From positions 1 through 40,451 of the forward strand of contig JBLHMA010000003.1 of NCBI GenBank assembly GCA_047621545.1: a stretch of 40,451 nucleotides of DNA, read 5' to 3'. Every line of letters begins with the position of its first letter. The stretch's first letter is position 1. The translations under genes and the position numbers were made by a program. The DNA is from Cognaticolwellia sp. GTDB lineage: Bacteria > Myxococcota_A > UBA796 > CAJQPC01. A model generated the notes under the pieces. It had not been told where the DNA came from. It saw nothing but the letters and a program-made list of their open reading frames with translations, and made no database searches. Shown piece after piece: positions 497 through 8,417 of the stretch.

Positions 497-2152
497 CTAT
501 CTAGGCCACTGCTCCAAGAACCGCACGATCCGGTCCCCAAGCGGACCCAGGCGCTCAAAGAGCTCGTGGTCTTCCACATCGGACTGAAGGCGCAGGAAGA
601 AGGCCTCCTCAAGCACCAGACTGTTGCCAACCCGAAGAGCGATGCCCAGGGCTTCCAGAACCTCGGCAAGCTGCTCTCCAGTCAATCCCCCGCGCAGGCG
701 GCGCGAGACCAGCCAGCCCTGCATGCTGCAGAACTCGTCCAGGTGGAACAGCAGATCCTTGAAGCGGCGGCGCTTGATGCGCAGATCCAGGTCGTTGCCC
801 TGCACGCTGACGGAGAGCTCTCCGCCGCTGCGTCGGTGTAGCTGAAGTAGAGCCACCAACATGGCCAAGTGTGGGATGTGGGCCAAGGCACGTTGGCGCA
901 GACTAACCCGATCCGGGATGGCCCGAGAACGGGGTTCACCGGGGGAAAACAGGCCCCCATGCACCAGCTCTCGGCGGTCGACCACCTTGGGCTGTCCACC
1001 CTCGGTTTTGCGACGTTCTTCCAAGATGCGGTTCACGCCGGAGACCCCGCCCACCAGATCCATCAACGTGGGGGGCAACGCGATGAACAGGTCGGTGGTG
1101 TCTACCAGCTCCAGGAAGGGGCCGGTCTGCTCTCCAGGCTCTGGGCCGGGGTCGTCCGCCAAGGGAAAGGCGTCGATTGGACGGCCGAGCAGCACCCGGT
1201 CTAGATCGGTGGCCAGGCGCGCGGGAGTGATCTCGGCACCGAAGATTCGCCTGTCCCAAGAGCCGTAGCGCTGCTGGAGCTTGGCGTACTCCATGGCGGC
1301 GCCCGGGTGTCCCTCGCTGGCTTGGCGCAGGATCGAGAGGTAGTGCCGGTAGCCAGGATCGCTGAGTGCGACGCCGGCAACAGTGTCCGAGAGGTCTCGT
1401 CGCCAGACCGCGCCCCAGCTCACCACCAGACGGTCGCCCACGCGCCAGCCGTCGCCGCGGCGCACGGCCATCTCCACGTAGGAGCCAACTGGACAGTCCT
1501 CGCCGCCGTGCCAGTCCAGGATGGCTCGGATGTGCCAGAGGGAGAGCTCGCCATGGTCGATCAGGGCCCGCAGGACCACTCGGTAGGCTTCGGGACTGTG
1601 GTCGCTGCCACCGCTGAGCTGGATGCGTGCCGGGCGCTTGCGTGGCCGACCCAGGCCCAGGTCAAAGCTGAGTTGGTGGCCAGGGCGCTGGTTCTTGGGG
1701 GTGGGATAGCGCATGGCGGGCTCCAACAGGGCACGTACCGAGGTCGCGCGGCGCCTGGCCGTGCTGGGGGCCATGTCGGGGACCGAGGCCTGGATGAACT
1801 GCGCGATCCCGGCGGACTGGGGGAGTTCGGTCCGGCCATCCATCAGCTGAACCACGAAGGGGTTCTGCCAGACGGCGCGGGCATAGACGCGCCCACGGTC
1901 CTTGCCGGCGAAGGCGTACTCAGTGCCCAAACGCGTCAGTGCGGGCGAGAGCGTCTTCTCGTCCGTTGCCAAGAGATTGAGCCAATCCCCGGCCTGGGTG
2001 TAGTAGTTCACCGTGCGGACCTCGCAGTCCAGCAGCATGGCCAGGGTGCGGTTGTCGCGCACGCCGCGGGCAACCAGCTCCACCAAACGGGTGAGCAAAC
2101 GCACGTTGTTGGCGTTGGGAATCAGAGTCTGACGGGGAGGCCGGGCGCTCAT
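497..2152 (-). CDS. Hypothetical protein with N-terminal winged-helix (DUF7226-like) domain and possibly further wHTH units
   Basis: 551-aa ORF. IPNANN..LL..L, RTVNYY.QA.DWL.LL, LTRLG and STARRRATSV resemble the wHTH domain seen in restriction-associated proteins (recalled similarity, not searched). Confidence 0.6.
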   Translation of the reverse strand: MSARPPRQTLIPNANNVRLLTRLVELVARGVRDNRTLAMLLDCEVRTVNYYTQAGDWLNLLATDEKTLSPALTRLGTEYAFAGKDRGRVYARAVWQNPFVVQLMDGRTELPQSAGIAQFIQASVPDMAPSTARRRATSVRALLEPAMRYPTPKNQRPGHQLSFDLGLGRPRKRPARIQLSGGSDHSPEAYRVVLRALIDHGELSLWHIRAILDWHGGEDCPVGSYVEMAVRRGDGWRVGDRLVVSWGAVWRRDLSDTVAGVALSDPGYRHYLSILRQASEGHPGAAMEYAKLQQRYGSWDRRIFGAEITPARLATDLDRVLLGRPIDAFPLADDPGPEPGEQTGPFLELVDTTDLFIALPPTLMDLVGGVSGVNRILEERRKTEGGQPKVVDRRELVHGGLFSPGEPRSRAIPDRVSLRQRALAHIPHLAMLVALLQLHRRSGGELSVSVQGNDLDLRIKRRRFKDLLFHLDEFCSMQGWLVSRRLRGGLTGEQLAEVLEALGIALRVGNSLVLEEAFFLRLQSDVEDHELFERLGPLGDRIVRFLEQWPR

Positions 2153-2275: not shown

Positions 2276-3307
2276 GTGAGCCAACCGGCAAGCCGACTGG
2301 CGCGACGAATCGAGCAGGAACGCAGCGTTGGACAAGCGCGTCGCGACCTGTCCTTCGACGCGGATCAGCACTACATCGAGGCCGCTCTGCGCGGTCGCAC
2401 TGCCCGTCGGGTTCGCGCCCACCTGCGCCGCCTGGAGCCGGTCGTCATCATGACGCCGCGCTGGTCCAACCCCCAGACTTTTCTGGAGGAAATCGCCTTG
2501 GATCTGGCGGTCGGCGAGCCGGCTGTTGGTTGCCGCACGGTCTCCTTCCGTCCTCTGAAGGGCCGCCGCGCGCCCGAGGCCTGGAGCTTCATTCTTTCGG
2601 TTCTGGGCCAGCTGCGTAGCCGCCGGAGTCAGGGCAACAGTCCGGTCATCGTCGCAGACGGACGTGGATTCCGCTCCGCCGCGCTCGACAGCCTGCTCCG
2701 CGCACAGGACGAGACCGACCACAACCTGGCTCTGCTGGGTCACGGCGCTGAGTACCTTCCCATCGAGGTCATTGAGGATCTGGGCGAGGTTTGGGCTACC
2801 TACGTACAGCGCATCCCCCGTGGACGCCGCACCACTATGTTGCTCGCCGGGAGTGTGGATGCCCGCATGGCCTTGGAGACCGGTCACAAGGTCCAGCTGG
2901 CTGACTATGGTGAGGCCGAGGCTGCTGCAGCCATCATCGGCCGCGTGGGGCCGGCTTCTCGGGTTCATCTGGAGACTGCCGCACGCTTCTCCGGTGGCAT
3001 TCCCGCCGTTGTCGAGGCCCTTGGACGTGGCGCCCAGTCACAGGGCTCCATGCCCCGTAGCCGTGCTGGCCTGGTCCGCACCTTGGGTCCCTTGGGCGAA
3101 GAGATGCGCATGGCGGTCGACATCGTAAAGGCCGACTCCGACTTGGCTGAGCGACTGCAGCAGCTCTTGCGCGGTGAGCCCCTGATCGAGGTACCCCAGG
3201 TCGACAAACCTTTGATGCTCGCTGGACTCCTTCGGCGCGTGCGTTTGCCTGGTGAGAACCGCGTCATGTTGAGAGCTCCAGCCATTGGCGAGGTCGGCGG
3301 AAGCTGA
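2276..3307 (+). CDS. Hypothetical protein, probable catalytically inactive STAND-like P-loop NTPase
   Basis: 343-aa ORF, GTG start after GGAGG. Degenerate Walker A (VVIMTPRWSNPQTFL), degenerate Walker B (LALLGHGAEYL) and a GxP motif (SGGIP). Confidence 0.5.
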   Translation: MSQPASRLARRIEQERSVGQARRDLSFDADQHYIEAALRGRTARRVRAHLRRLEPVVIMTPRWSNPQTFLEEIALDLAVGEPAVGCRTVSFRPLKGRRAPEAWSFILSVLGQLRSRRSQGNSPVIVADGRGFRSAALDSLLRAQDETDHNLALLGHGAEYLPIEVIEDLGEVWATYVQRIPRGRRTTMLLAGSVDARMALETGHKVQLADYGEAEAAAAIIGRVGPASRVHLETAARFSGGIPAVVEALGRGAQSQGSMPRSRAGLVRTLGPLGEEMRMAVDIVKADSDLAERLQQLLRGEPLIEVPQVDKPLMLAGLLRRVRLPGENRVMLRAPAIGEVGGS

Positions 3308-3349
3308 GGAGCGGTGTTCTGTAGAGGGGGCTGATGGTCCCAGAGCACA

Positions 3350-3380
3350 AACGGCGCCCAAAGGGCGCCGTTGCTTGTTT
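3350..3380. terminator. Likely bidirectional intrinsic terminator
   Basis: AACGGCGCCC-AAA-GGGCGCCGTT hairpin with a T-rich flank, between convergent genes. Confidence 0.75.
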
Positions 3381-3394
3381 TCAGGTCGGAGAGC

Positions 3395-3871
3395 TCAGCC
3401 CTTCCCGCCCTGAACCTCGATGGTGCCTTCGTTCCCGTCGTAATCCTTGATGACGAAGCGGAAGCGCCAGTCGGTCGCGGACGAGCAGGTCAGTCCGTAG
3501 GATGCGCCCGGAAAGCTTCCCGTACAGGTTCCGCCCTCGGGGTCGCAGGCAACTACACCAGCTTGGTCCACCATGTTGCCGTCGCGCAGCCACTCGATGT
3601 GGTGCTGGTCGTCAACGTCTTCCTCGCTGAACAGATTGCGTGGGACATCCTCGGTCCCTTGCGGGTCATCAAACTTCACTTGGAAGTTCCAGAGGTCCAC
3701 GGTGCCTTCCCCATCAGGGTGCTCCAAGCACAGGGCGCTGGGATCGCTGAGGGTTGGGGACTGTCCGTCGTCCACAACCTCTTCACCCGTGTCGCTGTCT
3801 ACGACCTCGTCGTCGCCCTTGCAGGCGGTCAAGGACAGGGCTCCAAGCAGAATGCAGAGGTGAATGCGCAT
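3395..3871 (-). CDS. Acidic, Cys-containing lipoprotein of unknown function
   Basis: ATG at 3871 after GGAGA. Signal peptide MRIHLCILLGALSLTA-C with lipobox. Confidence 0.75.
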   Translation of the reverse strand: MRIHLCILLGALSLTACKGDDEVVDSDTGEEVVDDGQSPTLSDPSALCLEHPDGEGTVDLWNFQVKFDDPQGTEDVPRNLFSEEDVDDQHHIEWLRDGNMVDQAGVVACDPEGGTCTGSFPGASYGLTCSSATDWRFRFVIKDYDGNEGTIEVQGGKG

Positions 3872-3959
3872 TGCGTCTCCTAATTCGGAGTGCAGCTTAC
3901 CCCATCTTGAGGCAGGGGAGAAGGCATGGCTTGGCGTTGCAAGTCGATAGCCCCCGCAG

Positions 3960-3991
3960 TGTATATTCAAATGTACATATGTAAATATACA
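3960..3991. promoter_or_regulatory. AT-rich palindromic site, candidate enhancer for a sigma-54 activator
   Basis: Inverted repeat TGTATATT (3960-67) / AATATACA (3984-91) enclosing the palindrome TACATATGTA (3974-83), about 170-200 bp upstream of the predicted +1 at 4159. Confidence 0.4.
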
Positions 3992-4131
3992 TGCACACTA
4001 TGTTGTCAATAAGTAAAAACAGGGACTTAAGATAGTAGTCCGCCAATAATCAGCTGGTATTGTGGACAGAGTACCAAAACTGAGTTCCCAGCTATACACT
4101 TCTAAGTGGCTGAAATCAGGTAGTTCAAAAG

Positions 4132-4148
4132 TTGGCACGGTCAATGCA
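4132..4148 (+). promoter_or_regulatory. Sigma-54 (-24/-12) promoter
   Basis: TTGGCACGGTCAATGCA versus consensus YTGGCACGRNNNTTGCW (one mismatch), with exact GG-N10-GC spacing. IHF-like AATCAGgtagTTC at 4114-4126. Confidence 0.75.
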
Positions 4149-4158
4149 TATGTATTCT

Positions 4159-5670
4159 CCGACACCCGGTTCGCTGGGGTCGGCCGAGAGAAACGCTCGA
4201 ATACGTTCTTTGACGTTGACATTGCTGATTGTAGACGACCTGCTGCACTGCTCCTGCCGGAGCGACCGAGAAATCGGATGTGCAGCGCTTCTGTACGCCC
4301 TCACTTGATGGGGTAGCGGAACAGAGGGACAGGGCGCTTGGGATACCTGGTAATCACCGGGAAGAACGAGGAGCCAGTCGAGCGGAGCGCAGAACCAATT
4401 CGTTGGGAAAGCAAGCTGGCTTAGGACCACCCCTCGGGGCGGAAACCACGGCGCAATCAGTGTCCAAAAGCCCATGGAAGAATCGATCTGAAGGTACCTG
4501 GAAACGGGCGCTGGAGGAAACGGACTCTCCCAGAGGAGTAAAAGCCCTGAAGCTGAGGCGCAGTTCTTTCGAGAATTGCGAGCGTTGACCGTCCGCGGTC
4601 AGCGGAAAAAACAGCAAGAGGGAACGGTAGCTGCGGAGACGTGGTTGCAGCTTCTGGAGAGGGAAAGTCTTTGAAGGGTCATGCGCTACGAGGAGCACTC
4701 CCACACCGTTTTCGGACGGACTAAGAGCGAGCAAAACGGAAGCGAACCTTATGACCGGCAGCAGGATGCAACAAGCCTGCAGCTCAGATGCGGAGAAAAG
4801 CGTCGAGGAGCAGAGAAAGCTCAGGACGTACCAAGTTCACTCTGGCAAGAGTTGAAACAACAGCATGAAGAGACTTTGCGATGGCATTTATTTGCTGGAG
4901 CAGAGGATGAGCGAGTGGAGACACAAGCTCGGGGAACTGATGGCGACGAGGCCAGAAGCTCATTCAACCCAAAGCATGCTGGAGAGGACGCATCGCGAAG
5001 CAAGAGCAATCTTGAGTCGCAGAGAGTCGATGAATTGGATTCAGAGAACAAGGTGGCTGCGCAGCTTGCAAGAGTTGAGGCGCACCCTGGAGAAGAATCA
5101 CAGAATTCGGCACTGACGAGTATGTCGGTGGAGAGGCGGAAAAGCCCTGGAGAGAAGGAGACGGCGAAGCAGCCCGGCAGGTGAGGCTTCATAGAGAAAT
5201 TGAGACGGACAGCGGACTGCTTGCAGCCCGATGAAACCGAGCAAGGACTTGCTGGCTCAGGTACGAGAAGGAGTCTCTGAAGGAGGCGCCAAAGGACAAT
5301 AGGCGGCATCGTCGCAAGACGAAGCAGGCAGTGTGTGAGAAACCTTGAAGGTCCCATCGAAACAGCACGCTCAAACGGCGGAGCCGGTGAAGGCCAAGAA
5401 GGGACGCGAGAAAGGCCAACGACTCGCAGCACACGGTCAGTCAATCAGCAGCAATGTTGGTTTGCCACCTGAAGGTTCAGGCAACCCCACGAGAGGCGAG
5501 CAGAGGCAACTCTGAGAGCTTTAAGTACCCGAATTCTCTGACAGGAACTCCCACGGGCTGGGTGTCACCCTCCATTCCCTTGCGGGGGAAGACGAGGAAC
5601 TCTACAGATGCGAAAGCGAATGTAGAAAAAGAAGAGCCCCGAAGCCGGAAACGGCCTCGGGGCTTTTCTG
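4159..5670 (+). ncRNA. Candidate ~1.5-kb highly structured non-coding RNA of unrecognised family
   Basis: No credible ORF. Sigma-54 promoter at the 5' end and terminator at the 3' end. Many tetraloop hairpins (UUCG, UCCG, UGCG, GAAA, GCAA), G-U pairs consistent with the + strand, and long-range pairing 4216-4246 with 5426-5460. Confidence 0.62.
5631..5670 (+). terminator. Intrinsic terminator closing the candidate RNA
   Basis: GAAGAGCCCCGA-A-GCCG-GAAA-CGGC-C-TCGGGGCTTTTC hairpin ending in TTTTCT, with an A-run upstream. Confidence 0.7.
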
Positions 5671-5705
5671 CGTCTGCAGTTTTTGCTTGGCGGATCGGTT
5701 CCGGT

Positions 5706-5804
5706 GGGACAGTCAAGCCGCGCTGGGGACAGTCAAGCCGCGCTGGGGACAGTCAAGCCGCGCTGGGGACAGTCAAGCCGCGCTGGGGACAGTCAAGCCG
5801 CGCT
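5706..5804. repeat. 20-bp tandem repeat GGGACAGTCAAGCCGCGCTG x5
   Basis: Units at 5706, 5726, 5746, 5766 and 5786 (last one lacks the final base). Confidence 0.95.
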
Positions 5805-6010
5805 ACGACAGTCGAGGCAAGCTCGGTACGGCAGTCGATTCAAGCCCCATACGGCAATCGAGGCAAGCTCGCTGCACAAGCCCGGTGCGGCAGTCGGGTC
5901 AAGCCCGATACGGCAGTCGGGTCAAGCCCGATACGGCTGTCGGGTCAAGCCCGATACGGCAGTCGGGTCAAGCCCGATACGGCTGTCGATCCAAGGCCGC
6001 TGTGGCAGTC
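5805..6010. repeat. 23-bp tandem repeat CGGCWGTCGGGTCAAGCCCGATA, 4 near-perfect copies plus degenerate flanks
   Basis: Units at 5888, 5911, 5934 and 5957, each with an internal TCGGG-TCAAG-CCCGA hairpin. Degenerate copies on both sides. Confidence 0.9.
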
Positions 6011-6122
6011 AAGTCTCGCTGCGTTAGTCGAAGCCAAGATCTCCAAGCCAGCGCAGCTGGACGAGTCGGGCGGCAAGGCGAAGGCCTTGCATAGATGCCG
6101 CAGCTAAATGCGAAGCACCAAG

Positions 6123-6257
6123 GGCCGCTCAGCTCAAGAGGCCGCTCAGCTCAAGAGGCCGCTCAGCTCAAGAGGCCGCTCAGCTCAAGAGGCCGCTCAG
6201 CTCAAGAGGCCGCTCAGCTCAAGAGGCCGCTCAGCTCACGAAGGCCGGTCAGCTCAC
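6123..6257. repeat. 17-bp tandem repeat GGCCGCTCAGCTCAAGA x~7-8
   Basis: Units at 6123, 6140, 6157, 6174, 6191, 6208 and 6225, plus a variant at 6243 overlapping the E1 stop codon. Confidence 0.95.
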
Positions 6258-8417
6258 AAAGAAGCGGGGTGGGACCCAGCTCCAGGACTTGGTGCTGCCA
6301 GCGACCTTGATCTTCATGACCTGCCCCGCGGCTGCGACGATGTCGTCCTTGGTCAGGACCGTCGCAGCCTCCAGCTTGAGGGACTGAGCGATGCCTGGGA
6401 TGTTCTTCTGGCCCAGCGCCAGGCTCGGCAGTCCGGGGAAGCGCTCTACGAGCTGGCCCTGGATGCTGCGCACGAAACCAGCAAATGAGCGGTCCTCGGC
6501 AGCGACCAGCAAGCGGCCGGTCTTCTCGACGCTCTCGGTGATCAGGTCTAGATCTGGCGGGACCAAGGTGCGCAGGTCGATGACCTCGACCGAGAGACCC
6601 TGCTTCTCCAGCTCTTCGGCAGCAGCGATGCTGGTCCACACGGCGCGACCCCAGCTGACCAGAGTTACGTCCTGTCCTTCCTTCCGAATCACACCCTTCC
6701 CGAAGGGAACTCTGACGTTGCGGGGCAGGTCGGGGATCTCGCCACGCATGATGCGCTTCTTGAGCTTGGTGATGCCGTCGGTGTCCGTTGGCTCGCCGGG
6801 AAAGGCGGGGCCCAGGGTCTGGCGGTACATCCACTTGGGCTCGAGCATGATGACGGGCCCGTCATACTCGGATGCGGCCATGATCAGGCCGTAGACATCC
6901 CAGGAGGTGCTCGGCATGGCGATGACCAAACCAGGGATGGGCGTGAAGTAGCCGTCCAGGGACATGGAGTGGTAGACCGCGCCGCCGCCAAAGGGGTCCG
7001 TGGGCATGCGCAGGATCATGCGGCAGGTGCTGTTGCCGTTGCTGGTCCAGTACAGGTTGCCCAGGTGAACCAACCAGTGGAAGGCGTTCAGGCTGTAGTC
7101 GCCGAACTGAATCTCAGGCAGGGCGTGTACCCCTTCGTGCAGGCCGGCGCCCATGCTGCAGCCCACAATGAGGGGCTCATTCAGGGGCGCGTCGGTGACC
7201 CGGTCTGGGTACTTGTTCTTCAGGCCGGCGGTGGCCTGCATCACGCCGCCCAGCTTGCCGACGTCCTGACCCAGGATCATGCCGCCCTTGGTCTCCAGGA
7301 TGTGGTCCAGAGCGGAGCGGATTGCGCCGCCGTAGCTGACGTTGGTGGTGCCAGGCTGGGCAGCGGGCTCCTGAACATCTGGAAATGGTGCGTAGATGTT
7401 CTCCATGACGGAGTCATCGGGGGGATCCGGCTCAGCGCGCACTTCGTCGAAGATGGCCTTGACCTCCTCGTCTTGGCGACCCATCACGTTGCCCAGCTCA
7501 TGATGGGCAAAGAAGTCGCGGCCCTGGCCTTCGACGCGGCGCATGATGTCCTGCTCTTCGAGCACGCCGCGCTTCACAAGCTCGGCGCCGAAGCTGATCA
7601 GGGGGTCGTCTTGGCCCAGGTCGAAGGTCATGTCGGCGGCGGAGCTGTGGCCGTTGAAGCGGGGCAGGTTGACCACGTGCATGAACGCAGGCTTCTGCTG
7701 CTCCCGTACGTACTTGGCGCAGGCCAAGGTGGTCTCGTATGTGTCGAAGAAGTCGCTGCCGTCGCAGGTGAAGAACTTCACCCCGAATCCTTCTGCGTAC
7801 TTCTCGAAGCTCTTGATTCCGCGACCCTCTTCGGGGGTCGTGGAGATGGCCACTTCGTTGTCGGTGATCATCACGATCGTTGGGAGCTGCCAGACGCTGA
7901 TGGCGTTCATCGTGTCGTGCAGGTCGCCCTCCGCCGAGGTGCCGTCGCCGATGATACCCAGGGACATGCAGTCCTTGCGTCCCTGGCTGCGGTTGCCCAA
8001 TGCCCAGCCTGCGGCCTTGCCCAGCTGCATGCCCACGGGGGACTGCACGGGCAGGATGCCGTAGTCGCGGATGTCCAGGTGGTAGACCATCTGGCGACCG
8101 CGGGACATGGGGTCTGTGTCCTTGGAGAACTGCTGGCGCAGCATGTTCCGAGTGAAATCCTTGTTGCCGTGCAGGGTCAGCCACATGCTCACCAGGGCGC
8201 CTGATCGGTAGTGAGGAACCACGGCGAACTGATCGAGCTTGGCGACCTTGGAGATCGCCAGGGCGGTGGCAGTGCCGTGCACTTCCTCGCCTGGACCCCA
8301 GATGGCGAACTTGACCTCGCCCCGGCTGGCCAATCGCACGATGTGCTCTTCGGTAGAACGGGATCGAACTCCGATCTCATAGGCCAGGCGCAGATCGTCA
8401 GCGGTCAGCTCGGACAT
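6249..8417 (-). CDS. 2-oxoacid (probably branched-chain) dehydrogenase E1, fused alpha+beta subunits
   Basis: ThDP-binding GDGTSAEGD...N motif, GHSSAD-like loop, beta-subunit motifs GQDVG, DAPLNE, EIQFGDY and EVIDLRTLVP. Confidence 0.9.
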   Translation of the reverse strand: MSELTADDLRLAYEIGVRSRSTEEHIVRLASRGEVKFAIWGPGEEVHGTATALAISKVAKLDQFAVVPHYRSGALVSMWLTLHGNKDFTRNMLRQQFSKDTDPMSRGRQMVYHLDIRDYGILPVQSPVGMQLGKAAGWALGNRSQGRKDCMSLGIIGDGTSAEGDLHDTMNAISVWQLPTIVMITDNEVAISTTPEEGRGIKSFEKYAEGFGVKFFTCDGSDFFDTYETTLACAKYVREQQKPAFMHVVNLPRFNGHSSAADMTFDLGQDDPLISFGAELVKRGVLEEQDIMRRVEGQGRDFFAHHELGNVMGRQDEEVKAIFDEVRAEPDPPDDSVMENIYAPFPDVQEPAAQPGTTNVSYGGAIRSALDHILETKGGMILGQDVGKLGGVMQATAGLKNKYPDRVTDAPLNEPLIVGCSMGAGLHEGVHALPEIQFGDYSLNAFHWLVHLGNLYWTSNGNSTCRMILRMPTDPFGGGAVYHSMSLDGYFTPIPGLVIAMPSTSWDVYGLIMAASEYDGPVIMLEPKWMYRQTLGPAFPGEPTDTDGITKLKKRIMRGEIPDLPRNVRVPFGKGVIRKEGQDVTLVSWGRAVWTSIAAAEELEKQGLSVEVIDLRTLVPPDLDLITESVEKTGRLLVAAEDRSFAGFVRSIQGQLVERFPGLPSLALGQKNIPGIAQSLKLEAATVLTKDDIVAAAGQVMKIKVAGSTKSWSWVPPRFFVS

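Follow-up and report, generated by a model that had tools for sequence, protein, structure and literature searches.

Few large, highly structured RNAs besides the ribosomal RNAs (rRNAs) are known in bacteria. OLE, GOLLD, ROOL and raiA are found mainly in Bacillota or in phage-related contexts, and GOLLD, ROOL and raiA have sizes within roughly 200-800 nt. OLE is given as ~600 nt. A recent cryo-electron microscopy report describes homo-oligomeric RNA assemblies formed by GOLLD, ROOL and OLE (PMC12286853). The DNA considered here is a stretch of 40,451 nucleotides from Cognaticolwellia sp. (GTDB lineage Bacteria; Myxococcota_A; UBA796; CAJQPC01), comprising positions 1 to 40,451 of contig JBLHMA010000003.1 in assembly GCA_047621545.1, and this whole stretch is hereafter called the window. 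Its positions 4159-5670 (+ strand) very probably encode one highly structured non-coding RNA (ncRNA) of ~1.5 kb with a sigma-54 promoter and an intrinsic terminator, in which a long-range helix proposed by an earlier note for 4216-4246 and 5426-5460 is most likely an accident of this strain. Like OLE, GOLLD, ROOL and raiA, this RNA is long and multi-helical, with invariant stretches between covarying stems, and it is non-coding, has no function assigned to it and is encoded by a stand-alone gene with its own terminator. Unlike them, it has no Rfam match, belongs to Myxococcota, ranges over ~1.0-2.7 kb within its family and is preceded by a sigma-54 promoter.

A second group of described systems comprises the regulatory RNAs that depend on sigma-54, which are ~100-200 nt in length and act by base-pairing or protein binding; Pxr of Myxococcus has this promoter type. 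The present gene shares with Qrr1-4, GlmY, YrlA/B (rtc operon) and Pxr a sigma-54 promoter in front of an RNA gene and multiple paralogues per genome, and is distinguished from them by a length of 1.0-2.7 kb, dozens of conserved helices and the lack of a match in Rfam. Because the promoter is of the sigma-54 type, transcription would be expected to depend on an enhancer-binding protein and on a signal. With CsrB and RsmY/Z the RNA has in common a purine-rich composition, a short repeated motif (UGAAGG) and multiple as well as tandem copies per genome, but it is far larger, and UGAAGG pairs within conserved helices predicted by RNAalifold instead of being displayed in hairpin loops.

The third group comprises RNAs closed by the pairing of their own ends. 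The best-known dimensions are those of 6S RNA, which is ~180-200 nt long and consists of a closing stem and a central bubble resembling an open promoter. As in 6S RNA, RNase P RNA, signal recognition particle (SRP) RNA and the Y RNAs, the 5' and 3' parts of the present RNA pair to close one domain, and the RNA seems abundant; unlike them, it is ~8 times the size of 6S RNA, matches no model and has a 5' arm that can alternatively be held in a local hairpin. The closing helix, here termed H53, joins 4161-4173 to 5554-5566 (both +), and the local hairpin, P1, occupies 4159-4183 (+) and has its 5' arm in common with H53. Because the 5' arm can also form this hairpin, H53 may arise by rearrangement. 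Membership of the 6S family was considered and rejected, given a length of ~1,510 nt and no match to the Rfam 6S model, with the closing stem alone in common. RNase III prefers duplexes of roughly 20 bp or more. H53 resembles the RNase III stalks of 16S and 23S rRNA in being a long-range helix; it spans ~1.4 kb, close to the size of 16S rRNA, and reaches 18-19 bp in the longest members of the present family. Unlike those stalks, H53 begins at the first nucleotides of the transcript and measures 13 bp in the window. In most members the first nucleotide of H53 lies 0-2 nt from where transcription is predicted to begin, so that cleavage within the helix would release no 5' leader. The RNA is a member of none of the families compared.

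The assignment of 4159-5670 as an ncRNA gene draws on end-to-end conservation, the lack of a conserved open reading frame (ORF), contigs from RNA libraries and a strand bias of G-U pairs. Within 4000-5700 long ORFs are few, the G+C content is 0.54-0.59 against ~0.64, and the + strand is purine-rich, with A+G amounting to 61% of the RNA. The whole RNA is 89-90% identical in two genomes of the window's own genus, and other genera conserve it as colinear islands. A pattern scan with the most conserved loop recovered 35 homologous loci in metagenome-assembled genomes, mostly labelled Myxococcota or Deltaproteobacteria, and a metagenome collection supplied 11 further homologous contigs; element lengths across the family run from 988 to 2,705 nt. 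No ORF is conserved among the relatives (only 2 of 14 keep the frame of 167 amino acids at 4681-5184 unbroken), insertions and deletions of 1 base are frequent, and no ORF tested inside the RNA region matched Pfam, so that a protein-coding reading was rejected. Helices are instead kept through compensatory changes, which together with the missing conserved frame is what defines a structured ncRNA.

Searches with the covariance models of Rfam 15, whose families include OLE, GOLLD, ROOL, HEARO, raiA, 6S, RNase P, tmRNA, SRP and CsrB/Rsm, gave no match at the gathering score in the whole window and none in 8 diverse loci of the family; at E ≤10, the region 3800-6200 yielded only three chance-level matches to eukaryotic families (E 2-9.5). 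ARAGORN found neither a tRNA nor a tmRNA. No description was found in the literature, the main texts of PMC11109978 and PMC8632094 included, with supplements, which could list candidate motifs, lying outside that search. The RNA is therefore apparently a member of an undescribed Myxococcota family of ~1.0-2.7 kb. The promoter, the terminator and the G-U pairs of the conserved helices, which are compatible with the + strand only, assign the gene to that strand; the gene downstream is encoded on the other. That the region folds as one molecule, as the earlier note had held, is borne out by a discrete transcript of ~1.5 kb with its own promoter and terminator and with covarying helices.

The sigma-54-type promoter, TGGCAC-N5-ATGC at 4133-4147 (+), has its GG at 4134-35 and its GC at 4146-47 in the GG-N10-GC spacing of the -24/-12 consensus TGGCAC-N5-TTGCW, and the full sequence reads TGGCACGGTCAATGCA (4133-4148). 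The motif stands at a constant distance upstream of the 5' hairpin in nearly every member with enough sequence, as seen in a 28-row alignment that includes duplicates and whose rows were chosen by a pattern requiring the sigma-54 motif. The window's genome encodes sigma-54 itself, with PF04552 above its cut-off on two contig ends. One metatranscriptome contig begins at 4161, 12-14 nt past the promoter GC and as expected for a transcription start. At the other end, folding and conservation place an intrinsic terminator at 5631-5670 (+), a GC-rich hairpin followed by a U tract; an equivalent hairpin and T run closes most homologues, and every well-defined member, with stem sequences that differ.

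Environmental RNA data point to expression of this interval. Among the 20 sequencing runs listed for the stretch, 19 are metatranscriptomes; these come from 10 studies, which sampled marine water and marine sediment. When the region 3000-7000 was compared, contigs of four metatranscriptomic runs from four studies covered 4161-5605, and depth was 0 in the bins 3000-4071 and 5680-7000 barring one stray match of 33 nt. Besides the contig that opens at 4161, one of 1,437 nt matches 4172-5605 save for its last few bases, and five contigs of the metagenome collection, 1,363-1,464 nt long and together spanning 4165-5623, match the RNA over nearly their whole length; contigs 95-96% identical to the window are found among its close relatives. 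The RNA is apparently highly expressed and abundant. Several RNA-library contigs, from different studies, end at 5532, 5538, 5545, 5553, 5554 or 5558, where the 3' arm of H53 is about to begin or has just begun, and others reach 5597-5623; a processing site at 5532-5558 was considered and set aside as too weakly evidenced, and assembly behaviour may account for these ends.

The earlier note had proposed that a long-range helix closes the domain, and one does, at 4161-4173/5554-5566 rather than at 4216-4246/5426-5460. The 3' arm of H53 lies ~65 nt before the terminator hairpin in the window and ends 0-10 nt before it in most other clades. In a duplex scan of every pair of 35-nt segments at least 150 nt apart (18,145 pairs), H53 is the most stable long-range duplex of the RNA, and its pairing probability (p) by partition function lies between 0.74 and 1.00 in the four sequences folded, with 0.999 for the window RNA (taken as 4161-5672) and 1.00, 0.80 and 0.74 for three relatives. 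Its arms co-vary, as GACACCCGG/CUGGGUGUC in the window's genus, as GACAUCCG/CGGAUGUC and GGCACCUG/CAGGUGCC, and in further clades as GUCACCCGA/UCGGGUGAC and GGCACCGG/CCGGUGCC, and in members of 2.6 kb the helix attains 18-19 contiguous bp. Across 15 clade representatives, the longest helix formed with the own partner averages 9.80 bp against 7.19 ± 0.30 bp with swapped partners, and the energy -27.45 against -22.76 ± 0.84 kcal/mol; in neither measure did any of 20,000 derangements do as well. Two elements (L029 and L030) were excluded from these end-pairing tests, their terminator or promoter having been mis-called. A complete genome of 9.4 Mb from the same order (G070) also has a full-length member, with a promoter of this type, the 5' motif, matching ends and H53.

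At the 5' end H53 has an alternative. The hairpin P1 is paired in 86.7% of the cells of an alignment of 14 close relatives (A1), with p 0.85 when the RNA is truncated at 5400 and 0.00 at full length. Comparison of truncated and full-length folding, the check suggested by the earlier note, thereby predicts an exchange of local for long-range pairing at this end, and high probabilities for the proposed helix in the window alone. A co-transcriptional switch is accordingly predicted by folding for P1 and H53, and not for the helix to which it had been ascribed; a hand-over from P1 to H53 during or after transcription is likely, on the strength of modelling and sequence comparison. The competing view is that H53 does not form in the cell, that P1 persists while 5554-5566 folds locally or binds a protein, and that the three-way covariation stems from the distal segment copying the 3' arm of P1 for another reason. 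The high occupancy of P1 in A1 and in the truncated RNA, together with the small local hairpins that RNAalifold permits in the distal region (5560-5563/5567-5570), lends this view some support. It is nonetheless unlikely: P1 is shorter and less clean than the distal match, which takes up the A left bulged in P1 and in several clades continues through the loop of P1 to give 11-19 contiguous bp; a hairpin loop would otherwise have no reason to match a distant segment. The high probability of H53 in the four folded sequences and its conserved position beside the terminator argue in the same direction.

The helix originally proposed is not conserved in this way across the family. All four segments on which it and its alternatives were based are present as described, at 4216-4246, 5426-5460 and 4454-4464 and at 4242-48 with 4280-86, and RNAduplex puts the pairing of the two arms at -33.1 kcal/mol. 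In the window RNA the partition function assigns p 0.83-0.94 (mean 0.92) to 4218-4227/5449-5458, ~0.67-0.68 to 4229-4231/5446-5448 and 0.94-0.96 to 4234-4240/5435-5442, with means of 0.95 for 4234-4236/5440-5442 and 0.96 for 4237-4240/5435-5438; the outer GCUGC/GCAGC pairs at 4242-4246/5426-5430 reach only ~0.10. The complementarity had been expected to exceed that of shuffled sequence, and for a pair picked out of 1.5 kb it does not. The scan of 18,145 pairs contains 7 at -33 kcal/mol or better in the real RNA, the best of them, at -38.5, being another duplex (4160/5532), and dinucleotide shuffling of the RNA gave 7 sequences that all hold duplexes at least this stable, 5-34 pairs in each, the lowest energies ranging from -35.6 to -41.6.

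Compensatory changes in homologues, also anticipated, are absent save at one pair. Among the 25 pairs as seen in A1, 8 are invariant, 3 change on one side, 1 changes on both and 13 depart only through unpaired cells; of the 14 sequences, 2 can form A4219-U5457 and 5 can form C4240-G5435. The window strain is the sole sequence in which every proposed pair forms, and U5457 and G5435 are variants of its own. Scored for covariation together with P1, the proposed helix reaches 0.037 where shuffles give 0.039, and 323 of 500 shuffles do at least as well. The helix is missing from the RNAalifold consensus (13 rows, L074 having been left out for its unrelated 3' tail), and its p is 0.00 in the folded homologues of three relatives (G003, G001 and G002a). 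In 8 other members, equivalent segments, taken after the UCUUUGACGU motif and after the GGCCAACGAC hairpin, bind their own partner with -20.34 kcal/mol against -20.75 ± 1.5 kcal/mol when swapped, and 11,496 of 20,000 derangements are as good; the text-pattern anchors for 3' modules missed many members and were used only for the 9 sequences of this test. A closing helix at 4216-4246/5426-5460 is thus neither above chance nor conserved, the two outcomes set in advance as speaking against it, and the proposal is not supported; the complementarity is most likely a chance or strain-private feature.

Each arm instead appears, from the alignments, to be part of conserved local structure. RNAalifold returns 4223-4237/4449-4462 (13 bp), 4241-4248/4280-4287, 5406-5410/5423-5427 and 5443-5450/5455-5462. 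The proposed 5' arm (4216-4246, +) thus finds its consensus partners in 4449-4462 (+), for 4223-4237, and in 4280-4287 (+), for 4241-4248. Both pairings listed by the earlier note as competitors of the long-range helix, that of the 5' strand with 4454-4464 and that of 4242-48 with 4280-86, are therefore present, not as competitors but as the conserved structures themselves. In the core of the first (4225-4232/4453-4460), 8 pairs are kept in 14 of 14 sequences, three of them varying one-sidedly (UA to UG, UG to CG); the second has two pairs with two-sided changes, for example GC, GU and UA at 4245/4283. The proposed 3' arm (5426-5460, +) is more variable than the 5' arm. Its start overlaps the 3' arm of a hairpin with the conserved loop AAAGGCCAACGA (5406-5427, +), which is paired in 100% of cells, includes two compensatory pairs (GC to AU, AU to GC) and has a stem that covaries in the wider family too. 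Its core builds a GCAA-tetraloop hairpin (5443-5462, +), in which 5448/5457 is G-U, G-C or A-U across sequences and which has p 0.90, 0.78 and 0.98 in three relatives. When five helices were tested jointly (4161-4169/5558-5566, 4225-4232/4453-4460, 4242-4248/4280-4286, 5406-5410/5423-5427 and 5446-5450/5455-5459), 96.0% of cells were paired, a level that none of 500 shuffles attained, two-sided changes occurred at 7 pairs (equalled in 2 of 500 shuffles) and the covariation score was 0.152 against 0.100 (0 of 500 shuffles).

A number of observations weigh against the overall reading of a conserved, H53-closed RNA with a strain-specific accident inside it. The RNA-library evidence consists of assembled contigs only, which show presence and silent flanks and not strand, exact ends or level. 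For the terminal helix, transcription starts in the end-pairing test were guessed from the promoter, the cognate helix is shorter than 8 bp in 5 of 24 elements, and P1 also covaries, so that covariation alone cannot choose between P1 and H53 in the cell. The results for the five-helix set have to be read in the knowledge that related sequences without any structure can exceed shuffle controls. Among its members, 4225-4232/4453-4460 shows one-sided changes only, with no double compensation, and has p ~0 in the window, even in the truncated RNA, and 0.00 in G003, 0.87 in G001 and 0.02 in G002a; the GCAA hairpin at 5443-5462 has p 0.03 in the window strain. The window's own fold gives the proposed helix p 0.92-0.96, its pair 4238/5437 switches from AU to GC in two sequences, and none of 2000 shuffles of the 3' arm reaches -33.1 kcal/mol (shuffled -12.9 ± 3.4). 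As a pre-chosen pair the arms thus stand far above chance, but that pair had been selected from all those available in 1.5 kb.

These last figures might be taken to mean that the proposed helix is real and lineage-specific, serving as a second, inner closing helix or as a switch state opposed to the pairings with 4449-4462 and 4280-4287. It nests within H53 and is completed by U5457 and G5435, which are the window's own. We regard this as very unlikely, since the helix has p 0.00 in three relatives, 13 of its 25 pairs only unpair across 14 close relatives, some of them contigs with 95-96% identity to the window, equally stable duplexes turn up in all shuffles of the RNA, and its formation would have to displace four conserved or covarying helices. 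A more general caution follows: a 20-bp long-range helix with p >0.9, obtained from one sequence, was misleading, and the competitors listed beside it were the conserved pairings.

That the region is no free-standing RNA gene and represents a decayed protein gene, an extended leader belonging to an adjacent gene or a mobile element is hardly credible, for although ORFs of 100-167 amino acids are present on both strands and the 1-3 copies per genome lie in varied neighbourhoods, no ORF is conserved, 1-base indels are common, the tested ORFs have no Pfam match, the RNA has its own promoter and terminator with the downstream gene on the other strand, its flanks are silent in RNA runs, and no transposase, reverse transcriptase or terminal repeat was seen.

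The most conserved part of the RNA is a core module at 4740-4835 (+), which includes a hairpin with the loop GGAUGCAACAAGCC and formed the basis of the covariance model R1. In 35 sequences, 10 of its 14 predicted pairs are kept through two-sided changes. Within the hairpin loop at 4764-4777 (alignment A2, columns 27 and 36), GGA...AAGCC alternates with GGG...AGACC or AAACC, and this coupling of an A/G swap to a G/A swap points to a tertiary contact or to A-G pairing of a non-Watson-Crick kind. UGCAAC in the core loop was also considered as a loop-loop partner of GUUGCA (4644-4649), a match that, judged by eye, is not conserved. R1 is found in 76 of 151 genomes of the order, spread over 39 of 67 genera and over 6 of 7 families; each of these genomes has 1-3 copies, in some cases arranged in tandem. 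Sampled across the phylum, other classes included, 27 of 151 genomes contain it at E ≤1e-5, and several families of the phylum are without it among the genomes searched. Tandem RNA genes lie 1.6-3.6 kb apart in some genomes, namely at 2186440 and 2188345 of G098:C1, at 355 and 3951 of G031:C29 and at 2401 and 3981 of G113:C416.

Two further motifs recur in the body of the RNA. UGAAGG is present at 4488-4494, 4671-4676, 5276-5282, 5351-5356, 5387-5392 and 5470-5476; these six copies, where shuffles give 1.0 ± 1.0, occupy sites that the family conserves. Judged by eye, the motif faces CCCAAGG-like strands in helices broken by a 3x3 purine loop with AAG opposite GAA, and it may constitute a repeated module for protein binding or tertiary contact. 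GGA and Shine-Dalgarno-like motifs in the RNA are not enriched beyond composition, and readings of the RNA as a CsrA sponge or a ribosome sponge are for this reason unsupported. Near the 5' end, the alignments reveal the nearly invariant motif GUUCUUUGACGU at 4205-4216 (+), for which no consistent pairing partner was found, the best partners lying at differing places. In many members, L032, L040, L048, L063 and L014 among them, it falls within a perfect 12-nt palindrome, UUUGACGUCAAA, that has decayed to UUUGACGUUGAC in the window's genus. A palindrome in an unpaired stretch could serve RNA-RNA dimerisation or, alternatively, could be a site on the DNA.

Palindromes are also found upstream of the promoter. 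An AT-rich inverted repeat, TGTATATT-N16-AATATACA, occupies 3960-3991 (no strand assigned), 142-173 bp upstream of the -24 box, and may be a candidate site for an enhancer-binding protein; the relative G003 likewise has upstream AT-rich palindromes, of different sequence. In other clades, the 14-bp palindrome GGAA-N6-TTCC, often as TGGGAAAT..ATTTCCCA, stands upstream of the sigma-54 promoter. Exact copies occur in 7 of 21 elements but in none of 21 downstream controls, degenerate ones are found in further clades, and the palindrome favours two distances, lying ~57 bp upstream of the -24 box in L045, L054, L058 and L061 and ~170-180 bp upstream in L050, L051, L059 and L061. This palindrome, which looks like the site of a dedicated enhancer-binding protein, is absent from the window's clade, where the other palindromes (3960-3991) are found. 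On the far side of the gene, the sequence directly past the terminator (5706-6256) holds three tandem-repeat arrays, with units of 20 nt (4.9 copies, 100% identical), 23 nt (4.9 copies) and 17 nt (8.1 copies), and the post-terminator sequences of G003, G001 and G002 are not alignable with it.

No neighbouring gene is conserved across the family, as judged from 59 ORFs at 17 loci, an 18th locus having yielded none. In the window the RNA is flanked at 497-2152 (-) by a weak match to DUF7226 and at 6249-8417 (-) by a fused E1 dehydrogenase (E1_dh, Transket_pyr and Transketolase_C). The dehydrogenase adjoins the copy in the window and those in G002a and G003 and a fragment in G057, and the DUF7226 protein recurs in the window and in G011. 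These recurring neighbours are read as partial synteny of one copy by shared ancestry, not as partners of the RNA.

Taken together, the two pairings of the 5' arm suggest how such an RNA might mature. In the nascent RNA, the 5' arm would first fold into the local hairpin P1; with the emergence of the distal arm, the longer and better-matched H53 would displace it; and both ends would then be locked in a helix near the terminator hairpin, stabilising the RNA in keeping with its abundance. Our best guess at function is that the RNA, once switched on by an enhancer-binding protein, acts as a stable protein scaffold or titrates a protein. More tentatively, and with a good deal of doubt, the family can be viewed as an undescribed class of very large, sigma-54-activated RNAs in which the end helix acts as a switch signalling that the transcript is finished, only complete molecules acquiring the closed form with protected ends that would serve as scaffold, protein trap or catalyst; on the same tentative view, the class would have many hosts across Myxococcota and figure prominently in metatranscriptomes of marine and sediment samples. 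To our knowledge, it would be the largest class of structured ncRNA in bacteria after the ribosomal RNAs. To the small number of such RNAs the family would add a class of 1.0-2.7 kb from Myxococcota, bacteria noted for their social and predatory life; it has a promoter of its own that is expected to respond to a signal, environmental RNA data clearly indicate its expression, and one member lies in a complete 9.4-Mb genome.

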